From IMG/VR virus record IMGVR_UViG_2636416140_000003: a stretch of DNA of 4,211 bases. One strand, 5' to 3'. Below are positions 1-4,211 of the stretch, one piece after another. Origin of the DNA: a virus. Taxonomy: Duplodnaviria > Heunggongvirae > Uroviricota > Caudoviricetes. A program made the position numbers and the translations under genes. The notes under the pieces are model-generated. The model did no database searches, was not told where the DNA came from, and was given only the letters and a program-made list of their open reading frames with translations. Numbering within the stretch: the stretch's first letter is position 1; each line of letters starts with the position of its first letter.

Positions 1-66
1 CATCATACACTAAATCAGTAAGTTGGCAGCATTACCCGGTTTCTGAACCCTGGATATGTTTATCTG

Positions 67-92
67 TCCCAGCCTGTTGAATCAGGCTGGGA
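67..92. other. Perfect inverted repeat / stem-loop (T-CCCAGCCTG-ttgaat-CAGGCTGGG-A), 9-10 bp stem with 6-nt loop, about 30 bp upstream of the plus-strand ORF at 122
   Basis: Read directly: 68-76 CCCAGCCTG is the exact reverse complement of 83-91 CAGGCTGGG, and T67/A92 extend the stem. No U-tract follows on either strand, so it is not a canonical intrinsic terminator; function unknown (operator, RNA processing or structure element). Confidence 0.4.
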
Positions 93-121
93 AAAGGTAA
101 AGACAATCAAGAGGATTATTT

Positions 122-394
122 ATGGACAATAACACCATTTCTCTACAGGAGTTGCTCGACTGCATTTCCAGGCTTCGGGATGATGTAAATGCCCTCACTG
201 TTGCATTTTCATCTCTGGCCTTATCAATTCCCAGAGAACAAATGCAACCAACACTGGCATCGCTCCTGCTTGAATCACGCAACCCCAAATGGTCCCAGGA
301 ACAACAAAATTCTTTCAAGTGGCTGGCGGCATTACTGGAAGAAAAATATGCTGGTAAAATTACCATTTCGGTGGAGTCTTCAGAGAATCAGTAA
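122..394 (+). CDS. Hypothetical 90-aa protein, predicted helical and Leu/Glu/Gln-rich; family not recognised
   Basis: ATG at 122 preceded by GAGG (111-114) with a 7-nt spacer, a good Shine-Dalgarno arrangement. The protein has ordinary soluble-protein composition, whereas the overlapping antisense frame (82..366) is Ser/Cys/Arg-rich and looks like antisense noise. The 3' end overlaps the convergent minus-strand gene 360..704 by 35 nt. Confidence 0.55.
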   Translation: MDNNTISLQELLDCISRLRDDVNALTVAFSSLALSIPREQMQPTLASLLLESRNPKWSQEQQNSFKWLAALLEEKYAGKITISVESSENQ

Positions 395-704
395 TTCTTC
401 CTGGTAGCTTTCCTTTGTAGGTTATCCACACATTCTGCGCCTCTAAAATTATGGGGCGCTTTTCCGGCGACTGCTCATCCCCTTCACATAACCCGGCAGC
501 AACATCCAGGAAGACCTGTCTGATGCTCATTCTGGCTGCTGCCTCATAAAACTCCAGCGCGGCACCTTCAACACGGTCCAGCGAGATGTCCAGGTCAAAA
601 ATTTCACCGTCAAAGCGTTTTTTGTCCCGTAACGCTAAAGTTACCGTAACTTTATTCTCAAAATTGCGGATCCCTTTCACAATCAGTTCATAGTTTTGAG
701 TCAT
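360..704 (-). CDS. YdfR-like (DUF1327 family) prophage protein, 114 aa, translationally coupled to the upstream holin
   Basis: ATG at 702-704 lies 4 nt after the holin stop (709-711), and the last holin codons contain GGGGAGAG, which serves as its Shine-Dalgarno. The N-terminus MTQNYELIVKGIRNFENKVTVT... resembles, as I recall it, E. coli Qin-prophage YdfR, which lies between holin essQ and lysozyme rrrQ. Family assignment is from memory and needs a search. Confidence 0.6.
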   Translation of the reverse strand: MTQNYELIVKGIRNFENKVTVTLALRDKKRFDGEIFDLDISLDRVEGAALEFYEAAARMSIRQVFLDVAAGLCEGDEQSPEKRPIILEAQNVWITYKGKLPGRITDSLKTPPKW

Positions 705-708
705 TGAA

Positions 709-924
709 TTACTCTCCCCGTGCAGCCTTACGACGGTCCTCTCTGATTTTGAAATACAGGTTAGTCAGATATGTCAGCAGCCCAAACAGCAGACTCCCCA
801 GCACGCCTATTGCCGCCCACTGAGACGGGGAAACCCTGTCCAGCAACTGCAGGAACCAGTAGCCCGTTCCCACCGCTGACGTGGTGTATGACACACCTGT
901 TGTGATTTTTTCCATCTGGTCCAT
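709..924 (-). CDS. S: Phage holin, S21 / EssD-EssQ-type class II pinholin, 71 aa, with dual-start motif (Met1 and Met4)
   Basis: Translation [71 protein letters not shown] closely matches phage 21 S and E. coli EssD/EssQ pinholins as I recall them: two TM segments and a charged C-terminal tail. ATG at 922-924 and a second in-frame ATG at 913-915; GGAG-containing Shine-Dalgarno about 9 nt upstream. The track ORF start at 1029 is taken to be a spurious N-terminal extension. Confidence 0.85.
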
Positions 925-954
925 ACCCCGTCTCCCGTTATCCGGAAGCTGACA

Positions 955-989
955 ACAATAAAAAAGCCACCAGTTAACTACTGATGGCT
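955..989 (-). terminator. Rho-independent terminator on the minus strand, between the DUF1737-like gene and the holin gene
   Basis: Minus-strand RNA reads AGCCAUCAG-uaguuaa-CUGGUGGCU (9-bp stem including one G.U pair, 7-nt loop) followed directly by UUUUUUAUUGUUG. Confidence 0.65.
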
Positions 990-1231
990 CTGATAACTCA
1001 TGCAAGCGTCTCAGACGACCCACTGACACTACCGGTGAGTTTAACGATACCTTCCATTTGACTGGCTCACTTTTTATGATGATGCCGGTGCATTTATCTC
1101 CAGCACCAGACTTTCTATCTCAACGCCATACGTTGCATTTTTGGTAATATCCGTCAGCGTCAGTGCATTTAGTCCCACTGCCAGACTGTCTTTTATGGCC
1201 TGGAATGCCGGGCCAGTACGATGACGTAGTA

Positions 1232-1420
1232 TCACTCCGGCTCAGTTGCACCACTGACCACCACATCACCTTCTGCTGCAATCGCCTGCATCAGGGTATA
1301 AGGGGTTATGGCCACCGGACTACCAAACGGCTGCCAGCCCTCTTTCAGTTTATGTGTCAGCTTTTCCGCAAGATCTGACGGCGGCGCCGCCCTGACAACA
1401 TCATAGTGTTTAAATGCCAT
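1232..1420 (-). CDS. Small conserved prophage protein, DUF1737-like, 62 aa from the second ATG
   Basis: The ATG at 1418-1420 is preceded by GGTGGAAAG about 6-8 nt upstream; the first in-frame ATG at 1435 lacks a Shine-Dalgarno. Sequence MAFKHYDVVRAAPPSDLAEKLTHKLKEGWQPFGSPVAITPYTLMQAIAAEGD... resembles small proteins I recall from just upstream of the holin in lambdoid/Stx prophages. Family name is from memory. Confidence 0.55.
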   Translation of the reverse strand: MAFKHYDVVRAAPPSDLAEKLTHKLKEGWQPFGSPVAITPYTLMQAIAAEGDVVVSGATEPE

Positions 1421-1679
1421 GGTTCTTTCCACCATCTGAAAAATAATTCTTTAAAATACCTGACATGTAATACAGAAAAAACACAAAACCATACCTTAAA
1501 TAAAAACCTGATTATCAAGCAGATATGCATGGATAAACTACAAGACGAGATATAAACCACCCTGCATTTAAATAAACAATAAACAACATCAGAAAAATAA
1601 TTCTGCTCTATGGTTTAATTCAAAAATATCATTTATACTTTTCAGAACATCACCAGCAAGGCATAAACAAGGAAACTAA
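1421..1679. promoter_or_regulatory. AT-rich intergenic region between divergent genes (minus 1232..1420 and plus 1680..2015); probable divergent promoter region
   Basis: About 260 bp of very AT-rich sequence with many TTGxxx / TAxxxT hexamers. No single -35/-10 pair could be assigned with confidence by eye. Confidence 0.3.
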
Positions 1680-2015
1680 ATGAAGTGGATTGTGATTGAT
1701 ACAGTTATCCAGCCATCATGCGGAATATCTTTTTCAGTCATATGGAGTAAAATAAAATTAATAATCTGGTATCAATCGGATGCTTTCTTACCTCCTGAAA
1801 GTATATTTACACTGACTCACACAGGCATCATGCTCAATAACAAAGTGCTACCTGTAACCATTTACAACGTAGTACCATTCAATAAAACATTCTGGAATTT
1901 AATCAAAAACAGCCAGGAATGCCCTACAAATACAGATAACGTATTGAATGAATGCTTTAATAACCGTTGCACTCTGCAAATATGTCCTTATGGACTAAAA
2001 CAACAAAGTCCATAA
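1680..2015 (+). CDS. Hypothetical AT-rich cargo protein, 111 aa, five Cys (four in the C-terminal 30 residues); no recognisable family
   Basis: ATG at 1680 preceded by AAGGAA (1669-1674) with a 5-nt spacer. An uninterrupted 111-codon frame in such AT-rich sequence is unlikely by chance because stop codons are AT-rich. Contains 6 ATA codons (residues 16, 21, 25, 28, 42, 102), the codon read by the adjacent phage tRNA-Ile2. Confidence 0.45.
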
Positions 2016-2035
2016 GGAGTTTACTCACATCTGAC

Positions 2036-2070
2036 AAAATCAATATAAACAGCCCCTCCGGAGAGGGGCT
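2036..2070 (-). terminator. Hairpin terminator, minus-strand orientation, possibly bidirectional, between the convergent cargo ORFs
   Basis: Plus strand 2051-2070 AGCCCCTC-cgga-GAGGGGCT forms an 8-bp GC-rich stem with a 4-nt loop. On the minus-strand RNA it is followed by GUUUAUAUUGAUUUU (U-rich); on the plus strand an A-rich tract precedes it but no U-tract follows. Confidence 0.45.
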
Positions 2071-2462
2071 GGAGAGTGGCGCTATGTGCCATTGCATGGT
2101 GCCGGGTGCCTCCCGGTGAATTCAGTACCAGCACCTGAATCCGCGATTATCCCATATACCTACTCGCTGATTGCCCCTCCGCACAGGGGGATTCACCATG
2201 CCAGTTTCTTTTAACAAACTCCCCGCAAACCAGACAACAGTCAACCGCCTGAATTGTGAAGTATTTAAAAATTTCTCCCGCTAACTGATACCCGGCTAAC
2301 AGTCTGGCGTTTTCTTTTTCAGCAACGGGAAAGCAACAACCACCACACCCGCCACCAGCACACCGTCAGCCGGCACTGACATTATCCGGCTGCTGCAATG
2401 CCATTCACAAAAACAGTAAGCAATCACTTTTTACCGTAACAGGTGATAATCCAGATATGTAT

Positions 2463-2816
2463 CTACCCCAGATGAGTAATCCGAAGTTCATCCATACCAC
2501 AGGTCCTGGCTATTCTGTTGTACTCCTGAACAAGAGCAAATAATTCTGAATTAGCAACCATGAACTCATCGCAAACCCTCTGTATAGCATCACTATTCAG
2601 AATAATAACGTCTCTTCCCGAAAGACGATCAGGAGTACAGAACAAAACTGTCAAACGGCTGAAGGCCTTTGCTCGTGCTGCATTGACTATATCAATACGC
2701 TGCCTAAGGATGAAACACCCCGACGCCTCATCAATATTCACTCTACCCACACCATATGAATGATAAATACTTAATGCTGAAAAAACCATTAGACCGTATA
2801 ACAAATACTCAATCAA
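2463..2816 (-). CDS. Hypothetical cargo protein, 117 aa from TTG at 2816 or 108 aa from ATG at 2789, with an N-terminal hydrophobic segment; no recognisable family
   Basis: Codon-by-codon reverse-complement translation confirms the frame, ending at TAG 2463-2465. The first start is TTG; the first ATG is at residue 10 (2787-2789). Contains 3 AGA, 3 AGG and 3 ATA codons (9 of 117), matching the two tRNAs immediately upstream. It lies directly downstream of Q, pR', tR' and the tRNAs, the slot that stx occupies in Stx phages. Confidence 0.5.
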   Translation of the reverse strand: MIEYLLYGLMVFSALSIYHSYGVGRVNIDEASGCFILRQRIDIVNAARAKAFSRLTVLFCTPDRLSGRDVIILNSDAIQRVCDEFMVANSELFALVQEYNRIARTCGMDELRITHLG

Positions 2817-2926
2817 TACTTAACAGAACTTTTATTTTTGACAAACATATAATATTTTCAACAATATCCTGAGCCAGGTATATTTCAGTATAAGGCTCTG
2901 CCGGAAGGAATCTGGAAGAATGAATA

Positions 2927-3003
2927 TGGCGCGCTGTACTGGATTCGAACCAGTGACCGATTGCTTAGAAGGCAATTGCTCTGTCCGGCTGAGCTAACAA
3001 CGC
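2927..3003 (-). tRNA. argN: tRNA-Arg, anticodon UCU (reads AGA/AGG), argN/argU-like, 77 nt with encoded CCA
   Basis: Reverse complement is GCGTTGTTAGCTCAGCCGGACAGAGCAATTGCCTTCTAAGCAATCGGTCACTGGTTCGAATCCAGTACAGCGCGCCA. It folds as a cloverleaf: acceptor GCGTTGT/ACAGCGC (one G.U), D-stem GCTC/GAGC, anticodon stem ATTGC/GCAAT with loop CTTCTAA (anticodon TCT), T-stem ACTGG/CCAGT with loop TTCGAAT, discriminator G, CCA. Confidence 0.85.
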
Positions 3004-3103
3004 TGAATACCGATAATGGACCGCCATCGGGGACCCGCCCCCGCACCAACAACCCTGTTATCGTGTCGTCTGCTCTTCCTGATAAGCTAATGGCGGTTTG
3101 TGA

Positions 3104-3179
3104 TGGTGGCCCTTGCTGGATTTGAACCAGCGACCTGGCGATTATGAGTCGCTCGCTCTCACCACTGAGCTAAAGGGCC
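3104..3179 (-). tRNA. ileZ: tRNA with CAU anticodon, most likely tRNA-Ile2 (lysidine-modified, reads AUA), ileX/ileZ-like, 76 nt with encoded CCA
   Basis: Reverse complement is GGCCCTTTAGCTCAGTGGTGAGAGCGAGCGACTCATAATCGCCAGGTCGCTGGTTCAAATCCAGCAAGGGCCACCA: acceptor GGCCCTT/AAGGGCC, anticodon loop CTCATAA (CAT), T-stem GCTGG/CCAGC. The framework closely resembles E. coli ileX as I recall it, and Stx phages carry ileZ-argN(-argO) at this position. The CAU anticodon alone cannot exclude tRNA-Met. Confidence 0.8.
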
Positions 3180-3214
3180 GGGAGCAGAATAATAACGGTC
3201 CGTAATTAATTTCG

Positions 3215-3242
3215 CAATAAAAAACCCGCTCAGCGGCGGGTT
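3215..3242 (-). terminator. Rho-independent terminator tR' downstream of the putative late promoter (Q-antiterminated terminator)
   Basis: Minus-strand RNA reads AACCCGC-cgcuga-GCGGGUU followed by UUUUAUUGCG: a GC-rich stem of 5 GC plus 2 AU pairs and a U-tract, about 65-70 nt downstream of the proposed start site. Confidence 0.7.
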
Positions 3243-3280
3243 GTAGAAACTCTTCTAACGTCAGGCATAAAACGCCCATC

Positions 3281-3317
3281 ATTATGACGAATTTACCACA
3301 GATTCCGGAAAAATCAA
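3281..3317 (-). promoter_or_regulatory. Candidate late promoter pR' (-35 TTGATT, 16-nt spacer, -10 TAAATT) with a -10-like CATAAT element in the initial transcribed region (candidate sigma-dependent pause / Q-loading site)
   Basis: On the minus strand, 5 nt after the Q stop codon: TTGATT (plus 3312-3317), 16-nt spacer, TAAATT (plus 3290-3295), then cgtCATAAT. Lambda pR' as I recall it also uses TAAATT as its -10. Placement immediately downstream of Q and upstream of tR' matches the lambdoid late operon. Confidence 0.5.
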
Positions 3318-3322
3318 CCTTG

Positions 3323-4144
3323 TTACCTAGTTACCTTTTTTAACTGCCGCTCAGCCCATGCTTCTTCAATATCAAACCGGGTCACCAGCGCATCATAAAA
3401 TTTCTTAACTGTTTTTTCCCATGACGCGCGTGTTATCTGGTTTGTCACCTCGCATATAGCATTAAATGCCTCCGTTGATGGTAGTCTTTCATAGCCACGA
3501 CCACCACAACGCTGGCAGTCTCTGATAACAGGCATACCACGTTTTACCGACTCTTCACGATGAATGGCGACACCACGCCCACGGCAATCCTTACAGGCGG
3601 TGGAAACCTCACCCTTTCCGCCACACTCCGGACAGGCAACTTTTACCACCTCCCTGACTTTTTTCCATTCTTCCCAGTAAGACGGATACACACCTTTCGT
3701 ACACTTTGCCCATACCGGCGGCTTACCATCCGGATACTGGATCTTATTTGTAAAAACTATGCTTTCAATAAATTTTTCCCCATAGCAACAAGGGCACTGC
3801 TTTTTACTCGCTGCGCTGCGGGCATAATCCTCAAAAGCGTACGAAGCCATAATGCGCATCACTACCGGTTTTATTTCTGCCGGAAGTTTTCTCAACGCCG
3901 CCACACGATCGCACCGACTGAGTGCATAATCTGCCAGTAATTCTGTTGCCCGCGCCCTGTCATTCATACTGATGCCCATTTTCCCCAGGAACGCAGAAAA
4001 ACCCATCTCAGCCCGATTCTGTGTCATGCCCTGCGCGGCCATCACATCAGTGATACTCAGCGCATCTTTTGACGTTGAGGCCGATGCATCGGTCAGGCCA
4101 GGGGATTTTGGGGAGTAGTATTTCGGTAAATCTTCCAGTTTCAT
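3323..4144 (-). CDS. Q: Late-gene antitermination protein Q, large (273 aa) Q82/QuuQ-like type, with a Cys-rich zinc-finger region
   Basis: ATG at 4142-4144, TAA at 3323-3325. The protein has a CPCC motif and three CxxCxGxG motifs (CPECGGKG, CKDCRGRG, CQRCGGRG) within residues 117-217. It sits immediately upstream of the pR'/tR'/tRNA/holin arrangement. Family assignment is from recollection of prophage Q proteins and gene context, not a search. Confidence 0.75.
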   Translation of the reverse strand: MKLEDLPKYYSPKSPGLTDASASTSKDALSITDVMAAQGMTQNRAEMGFSAFLGKMGISMNDRARATELLADYALSRCDRVAALRKLPAEIKPVVMRIMASYAFEDYARSAASKKQCPCCYGEKFIESIVFTNKIQYPDGKPPVWAKCTKGVYPSYWEEWKKVREVVKVACPECGGKGEVSTACKDCRGRGVAIHREESVKRGMPVIRDCQRCGGRGYERLPSTEAFNAICEVTNQITRASWEKTVKKFYDALVTRFDIEEAWAERQLKKVTR

Positions 4145-4211
4145 TTTTTGACCTGCTCTTAATGCATTATGAACCGCCCCGGGAATCCTGGAGACTAAAC
4201 TTCCTGAGAAA

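Follow-up and report, generated by a model that had tools for sequence, protein, structure and literature searches.

An STnc100-family RNA gene and a probable tciB remnant at the 3' end of a lambdoid prophage cargo cassette

Positions 2036–2462 of the window, by which we mean the whole 4,211-nucleotide stretch of viral DNA that was analysed (Caudoviricetes; IMG/VR record IMGVR_UViG_2636416140_000003), very probably comprise an STnc100 small RNA (sRNA) gene with its terminator and a decayed copy of tciB, at the 3' end of a lambdoid moron cassette downstream of Q and two tRNA genes. A conserved, structured RNA gene ending in a terminator lies at the 3' edge of the cargo cassette. Because both components belong to described families (RF02076 and PF13064), the finding is already known. 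The original prediction, which had noticed a GC-rich structured block and offered a structured 3' UTR, an sRNA, a small-protein gene, or a decayed gene as explanations, observed something real, and its interpretation is partly supported: the sRNA option is right for 2041–2230, where Rfam matches STnc100, and the decayed-gene option is right for 2296–2456, where tciB (DUF3927) is missing its 5' half.

The window is part of a lambdoid prophage late-regulatory region read on the minus strand, in the order Q, a terminator, two tRNA genes, the cargo region, STnc100, and then a convergent gene (Table 1). Profile searches also found a DUF1737 stub, a P21-type holin, and a YdfR gene in the window. The DUF1737 ORF (67 aa; 1232–1435, minus strand) is the N-terminal stub of a nanS-p type sialate O-acetylesterase gene and is flagged by PGAP as a partial pseudogene; an intact gene of this type comes after STnc100 in loci L005–L010 and in Stx2 phages. 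Complete E. coli genomes align to 37–4171 only, at ~98.5–99% identity, and the edges of the window are insertion-sequence ends, with an IS1 terminal repeat at 1–36 and the left end of IS629 at 4170–4211; in pCP301 the latter sequence sits 13 nt before IS629 ORF1. The IS629 insertion point lies in the last bases of rusA, immediately upstream of Q, and Q may have been severed from its usual upstream transcription by this element. A weak Rfam match to Trp_leader at 3216–3322 on the minus strand (26.7 bits, compared to a threshold of 41) spans the Q–tRNA interval with the tR'-like terminator, and most likely reflects just this leader-plus-terminator shape.

Table 1. Features of the window in the order in which the minus strand is read, with the evidence for each.
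Feature	Position	Strand	Evidence
Q antiterminator	4144–3323	−	Pfam Antiterm, 183.7 bits
tR'-like terminator	3242–3223	−	terminator scan
tRNA(CAT), tRNA-Ile/Met	3179–3104	−	
tRNA-Arg(UCU)	3003–2927	−	
117-aa ORF	2816–2463	−	TTG start; phrog_2873, E = 2e-69
block under study	2462–2036	−	
putative vestige of tciA 3' end and original tciB start	2405–2456	−	side-by-side comparison with intact L005, L006, L011
43-aa ORF, GTG start 2427, same frame as the 28-aa small ORF (2296–2382)	2296–2427	−	PGAP 'DUF3927 family protein' WP_000562553.1
spacer, tciB stop to Rfam 5' boundary, 65 nt	2231–2295	−	same length in all intact tciB loci
STnc100-family sRNA gene, Rfam RF02076	2041–2230	−	full-length covariance-model match
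P1 5' strand GCAUGGUG, pairs with 2094–2101 CACCAUGC and closes the core fold	2194–2201	−	in minimum-free-energy fold
P2 hairpin CCCCCUGUGCGGAGGGG	2174–2190	−	covariation, family members
P3 pseudoknot, P4 loop (GCUGGU) with AUCAGC	2127–2133 with 2165–2171	−	complementarity test
P4 hairpin GGAUUCAG-loop-CUGAAUUC	2118–2142	−	all four counted pairs covary
P5 hairpin CCGGGAGGCACCCGG	2102–2116	−	Rfam consensus positions 125–139
intrinsic terminator, 9-bp G+C-rich stem 2071–2050, then UUUAUAUUG	2041–2071	−	terminator scan, fold, and Rfam 3' hairpin alignment
iraM homologue (RssB anti-adaptor)	1680–2015	+	NCBIfam NF007393, 162 bits; convergent on STnc100

The composition that first drew attention to the block is confirmed. 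Its GC fraction is 0.496, compared to ~0.32 in the AT-rich flanks, with values of 0.553 for the STnc100 portion (2041–2230) and 0.515 for 2296–2427; the flanking intervals measure 0.322 (1440–2035), 0.412 (2463–2816), and 0.318 (2817–2926). There is no long ORF, the longest that overlaps the block having at most 46 aa. The hairpins that had been described at 2102–2116 (CCGGG/CCCGG) and 2174–2190 are exact, and the terminal hairpin with a U-rich tail has a stem that extends to 9 bp at 2050–2071, followed by TTTATATTG on the minus strand; a terminator scan finds the same element. A further hairpin, CAGCCGG and CCGGCTG around a 12-nt loop, is present as claimed but one base away from the position given for it, at 2367–2392 rather than 2368–2393. 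This hairpin lies inside tciB coding sequence, contains a G-U pair in L005, is broken in L011, and shows no covariation, and we therefore treated it as incidental rather than regulatory.

The comparison with sRNA collections that had been proposed for the block was made as a search of all Rfam families (cmscan), which placed 2230–2041 of the minus strand in RF02076 with a score of 132.4 bits, compared to a gathering score of 47, and E = 4.6e-30 over model positions 1–206 of 206. The minimum-free-energy fold of 2258–2041 recovered P1, P2, P4, P5, and the terminator, with a modestly unusual energy of −83.2 kcal/mol (z = −1.9, equalled in 7 of 200 shuffles). Published qPCR primers for STnc100 match the window exactly. 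Within the spacer, ahead of the Rfam 5' boundary, there is a conserved CACAAT box (2253–2258), possibly a −10 element or the region of the 5' end of the RNA, and a stretch CACAATTCAG..TTGAC is common to the window and the Stx2-phage copy. A consensus promoter scan gave nothing significant upstream of STnc100 (7 sites, compared to 4.8 expected), and the sole match within the block (−35 at 2410–2405, −10 at 2386–2381) was rejected as a promoter of STnc100's own: it lies inside the tciB remnant, and its start would fall downstream of the ATG at 2382. STnc100 had seemed unannotated here solely because PGAP does not annotate this family. What PGAP does call in E. coli genomes at 2086–2211 of the plus strand is an 'incomplete hypothetical protein' pseudo-CDS, which runs antisense inside the STnc100 gene and is probably spurious.

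The check by folding and covariation gave the same picture across the family. Scanning a single genome of each bacterial species for an exact pattern gave 120 loci from many genera of Enterobacteriaceae. The 5' anchor pattern for collecting family members was a relaxed one (a strict version recovered 20 of 137). Nearly all of the sampled copies that were checked pass the Rfam threshold, and lambdoid markers were found at 46 of the 120 loci. For 84 non-redundant cores from many genera, paired cells amounted to 97.3%, compared to 90.2% in shuffles, and double-change cells numbered 114, compared to 21.5 in shuffles. The covariation score of these cores was 0.239, compared to 0.094 for shuffled alignments (0 of 500 reached the observed score) and 0.02–0.09 for slid registers. 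Among the tested helices (P1, P2, P4, and P5), compensatory changes were present in 8 of 20 pairs. Three of the five pairs of P2 change in this way (CG 71, GC 9, UA 3, and similar) while 99.8% of its cells are paired, and the outer pair of P1 also covaries (GC 65, AU 11, and GU 5 in the 84 members). P5 and most of P1 are invariant in the set, partly by construction because the search pattern contained them, and support from covariation therefore rests on P2, P4, and the outer P1 pair.

The same alignment points to a pseudoknot, P3, that is absent from the consensus structure line in Rfam. Immediately after P2, 5–8 nt match the P4 loop by complementarity in nearly all copies, even though 68 distinct strands occur. 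Over 123 copies, the complementary run averaged 6.15 nt, compared to 4.41 nt when partners were permuted between sequences (z = 18; 0 of 10,000), and z was 15.6 for distinct strands only. This test was limited to the P4 loop, as duplex energies over a wide window were noisy. A terminator-like hairpin is missing in about half of the copies (63 of 131). Multiple copies of STnc100 occur together at L039 (6363–7007), L050, L035, L076, and L004 (3165–3822): some are tandem arrays of two or three, repeating every ~220–270 nt, for example in Superficieibacter and Enterobacter, and others are two copies ~470 nt apart (phage vB_EcoS-813R8, E. albertii).

Relatives of the window's RNA have been studied in other prophages. 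Tree et al. (2014) described convergent sRNA pairs in the gap that separates a cargo coding sequence from the following ORF of the phage. One of these RNAs, EcOnc27, the partner of AsxR in prophage Sp5, appeared as an Hfq-crosslinked peak and gave Northern bands of ~235 and 247 nt, of which the 247-nt form was destabilised in the absence of hfq (Tree et al., 2014). The EcOnc27 probe sequence falls inside the STnc100 match of the Stx2 locus L002, and both bands are longer than the 206-nt Rfam model. EcOnc27, called sRNA103 in EDL933, coincides in part with the annotated STnc100, and fimZ and espA transcripts rise when it is overexpressed; EDL933 has 11 transcribed STnc100 copies, one of them verified by Northern blotting. 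PasD1 and PasD2 of EPEC E2348/69, which are Hfq-dependent and have RIL-seq targets, are reported relatives of STnc100 (2026 preprint). The published functional evidence for STnc100 consists of overexpression and crosslinking of homologues, and STnc100 sequence variants beside stx2 have been linked statistically to severe disease.

The copy in the window shares its helices and a terminator with EcOnc27/sRNA103, and both follow the cargo coding sequence of a lambdoid prophage, with Q and tRNA genes further upstream. In the core, the segments GCAUGGUGAAUCCCCCUGUGCGGAGGGGC and CACCGGGAGGCACCCGGCACCAUGC hardly differ from those of the EcOnc27-type copy, a single base being changed in the P2 loop, whereas the central variable region and the sequence of the terminator differ from the Stx2-phage copy, to which overall identity is ~71% over 179 nt. 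The order in Stx2 phage F004 is Q, three tRNAs, stx2AB, STnc100 beginning 75 nt after stx2B, and then the convergent AsxR. In the window the upstream cargo is a tciB remnant instead of stx2AB, and the convergent partner is the iraM gene, which fills the slot that the anti-sRNA AsxR holds in Stx2 phages. The iraM homologue and STnc100 share the hairpin at 2050–2071. AsxR and AgvB (RF02703 and RF02702) are encoded in the same intergenic region, close to the cargo of lambdoid prophages, and are convergent with STnc100, but they are 51–60-nt RNAs on the opposite strand; in the window, no match to either family was found at E ≤ 1, whereas AsxR scores 88.1 bits in L002. The K-12 iraM locus was rejected as a source of STnc100: iraM alone matches (70.6% over 323 nt), and the sequence downstream is the e14/icd junction without STnc100. 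From the published description, PasD1 and PasD2 share structure and ancestry with STnc100, lie beside a PF03589-type Q gene as here, and reach ~240 nt; PasD is typically linked to lpxR, which the window lacks.

By analogy with these homologues, transcription would come from the direction of the cargo gene, the RNA arising at a promoter close to the CACAAT box or through processing of the cargo mRNA, and the transcript would end at 2050–2071 and accumulate as an RNA of ~200–250 nt. Hfq would bind the 3' part of this RNA, whose targets in trans may be mRNAs of the host or of the prophage. When the phage grows lytically, polymerase modified by Q would transcribe past the STnc100 terminator. A compact, pseudoknotted, conserved core in place of a single-stranded seed, together with the lack of a terminator in roughly half of the copies, fits a simple base-pairing sRNA less well.

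These last features bear on a different account, in which STnc100 is mainly cis-acting, either as a terminator or RNA-stability module at the 3' ends of prophage cargo or as an attenuator or leader for the genes that follow, and the detected sRNA is a by-product. STnc100 always comes directly after the cargo coding sequence, whichever cargo that is (stx2B or tciB), and its strongest conservation is in the multi-helix core and its junctions rather than in an open seed. In 21 of the 120 species-representative loci, a KdgM-type porin gene begins 82–224 nt downstream of the core on the same strand, with no phage markers near. The gene downstream of copies that lack the terminator-like hairpin is on the same strand in 38 of 53 callable cases, and over all copies the downstream gene is co-oriented in 72 of 114 (p = 0.006) while the upstream gene shows no such bias (59 of 116), but the gene calls behind these counts are crude, taking longest ORFs only. 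Homologues, moreover, are abundant, discrete, Hfq-stabilised RNAs with RIL-seq partners, overexpression of a homologue alters other transcripts, and the next same-strand gene in the window is not adjacent because the convergent iraM gene intervenes. Weighing both sides, we consider a mainly cis-acting role possible but unlikely.

The KdgM-linked loci come from Kosakonia, Klebsiella, Citrobacter, Raoultella, Enterobacter, and others (L017, L030, L033, L040, L042, L048, L078, L084, and 13 more). The distance from core to porin gene is 340 nt in one locus, and the interval between them sometimes includes a hairpin and a Shine-Dalgarno sequence, giving a leader-like look. A more specific proposal is that the STnc100 core (P1, P2, P4, P5, and the pseudoknot) is a compact cis-acting domain, a ligand- or protein-responsive attenuator or leader that stands before KdgM-type porin genes on the chromosomes of many Enterobacteriaceae, and that the prophage sRNA is a terminated leader captured by phages between cargo and late genes; we regard this proposal as speculative and rather improbable.

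The second component of the block, under the preferred reading, is what is left of tciB. A profile search gave a Pfam match of the 43-aa ORF to PF13064 (DUF3927) with 90.7 bits, compared to a cutoff of 25, and E = 5.6e-26, aligning residues 2–43 with profile positions 7–53; the same ORF matches PHROG 1470 ('TciB-like') at E = 2.6e-11. Intact tciB relatives encode 53–57 aa, reading MTVKMRLAVVALLLFLVVMVVMVDFSSRIMSVLADGVLVAGVVVVAFPLLKKK.., with two hydrophobic helices, although database copies vary in length. In these loci tciB follows tciA in a TerB(tciA)–DUF3927 pair whose stop and start codons overlap, in the same cargo slot and with STnc100 65 nt later, as in L005–L010. Intact tciB is under purifying selection across genera, and ratios of synonymous to non-synonymous codon differences are 14 to 10 (L005/L011) and 18 to 11 (L043/L120). 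The tciA–tciB genes of phage P1 are the same module: P1 TciA and the TerB protein of the prophage share 42% identity (E = 3e-33), and P1 TciB, whose function is annotated 'by homology' only, has 56% identity over 34 aa (E = 3e-6), with a homologous C-terminal helix and tail. A tblastn search of the phage collection with intact TciB (P0056) gave no match, probably as the low-complexity filter masks its hydrophobic repeats.

Compared to P1 TciB and DUF3927, the copy in the window has lost helix 1, the ancestral start, and its partner gene tciA. Nucleotide homology to the intact loci begins at 2395, and of the two-helix architecture the second helix alone is homologous, with the N-terminal sequence IAYCFCEWHC standing in place of the first; translational coupling to an upstream TerB/tciA gene is likewise missing. 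Upstream of this point, a vestige reads ..ATCACCTGTTACGGTAAAAAGTG.. in the window, compared to ..ATCATCTGTGACGGTAAAAATG.. in intact L005, L006, and L011. About 20 nt of the 3' end of tciA are left, the ancestral tciB start has changed from GTG to GTT at 2438–2440 (GTGA to GTTA), and a deletion of ~30 nt after the mutated start shifts the frame, which then reads TVKSDCLLFL to a TGA stop at 2405–2407 and forms the end of a 31-aa ORF (2405–2500). The corresponding steps would have been replacement of tciA, mutation of the tciB start, and destruction of helix 1 by deletion and frameshift. On these comparisons we concluded that 2456–2296 is a probable pseudogene remnant of tciB. A related phage has a copy truncated against a partial tRNA-Arg.

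This ancestry also bears on the relation of the block to the 117-aa ORF, which had been taken as the cargo gene whose 3' UTR the block would form. The ORF is unrelated to TerB/tciA, with sequence comparison showing no similarity that would make it a diverged copy; in both E. coli 042 and FDAARGOS_536 PGAP leaves it without an annotation; and a related phage that lacks it still keeps the tciB remnant, STnc100, and iraM. The idea that the block sits between this cargo ORF and its terminator also did not hold, as the sRNA and terminator were inherited with the tciAB cargo and keep the same spacing after the tciB stop in all intact loci. The block is thus the tail of a replaced tciAB cargo gene, or moron, and not a 3' UTR of the 117-aa ORF. 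The phrog_2873 match of this ORF starts at residue 10, and there was nothing significant in Pfam (one sub-threshold RHIM match) and nothing in NCBIfam. The end of the ORF (GGATTACTCATCTGGGGTAG) is repeated imperfectly, in direct orientation and ~20 nt away, in the tciA vestige (GGATTATCACCTGTTACGG), at 2437–2476 of the minus strand; the repeat may have been left behind when recombination exchanged the cargo gene.

The small ORF inside the remnant had been singled out for the general look of a type I toxin. Reading from the ATG at 2382 to the TAG at 2296, it encodes MSVPADGVLVAGVVVVAFPLLKKKTPDC as described, and its hydrophobic core and Lys-rich (KKK) tail are real; they are the second transmembrane helix and tail of the two-helix protein. 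If the 28- or 43-aa ORF encoded a small membrane protein that functions, perhaps as a type I toxin, under the control of the surrounding structured RNA, these properties would be expected, and the ORF does stay open in many genomes, where PGAP annotates it; contigs with the 28-aa form number at least 1000, and the gene call on the truncated tciB makes residual translation or function possible. Several observations nevertheless make such a protein very unlikely. The ORF corresponds to the C-terminal half of a protein with an N-terminal helix that different genera conserve, the ancestral start is mutated and the 5' half frameshifted, and the Shine-Dalgarno sequence, which the original prediction had called weak, is weak ahead of both candidate starts. 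Pfam and NCBIfam gave DUF3927 only and PHROG gave TciB only, with no homology to Hok, Ldr, Ibs, TisB, ShoB, Zor, or DinQ; Rfam gave no Sok, Sib, IstR, Rdl, or similar antitoxin RNA at E ≤ 1; and STnc100 lies on the same strand, downstream of the ORF, rather than antisense to it, although an antisense RNA of an undescribed kind may exist. Other database alleles are truncated, frameshifted, or altered by indels in the GVLVAG repeat (for example P0023, P0025, P0076, and P0086), as decay predicts. The 28/43-aa ORF is most likely a non-functional leftover, and the remnant is very common probably because it is physically linked to, and travels with, the sRNA.

That the block is merely GC-rich intergenic leftover with hairpins formed by chance can be dismissed, since the modestly unusual folding energy is set against the Rfam E value, the covariation over 84 sequences from many genera, and matches in 2860 of 5426 complete E. 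coli genomes.

What the window adds is a further copy of an already catalogued sRNA of prophages beside a pseudogene, and as such it matters little. There are two lessons for annotation: the 28–43-aa 'DUF3927 family protein' calls that E. coli and Shigella genomes carry by the thousands are probably 5'-truncated tciB remnants, and the PGAP pseudo-CDS at 2086–2211 on the opposite strand sits within an RNA gene. The STnc100 family adjoins stx2 in Shiga-toxin phages, and an improved model of its structure that takes in the pseudoknot has some value.
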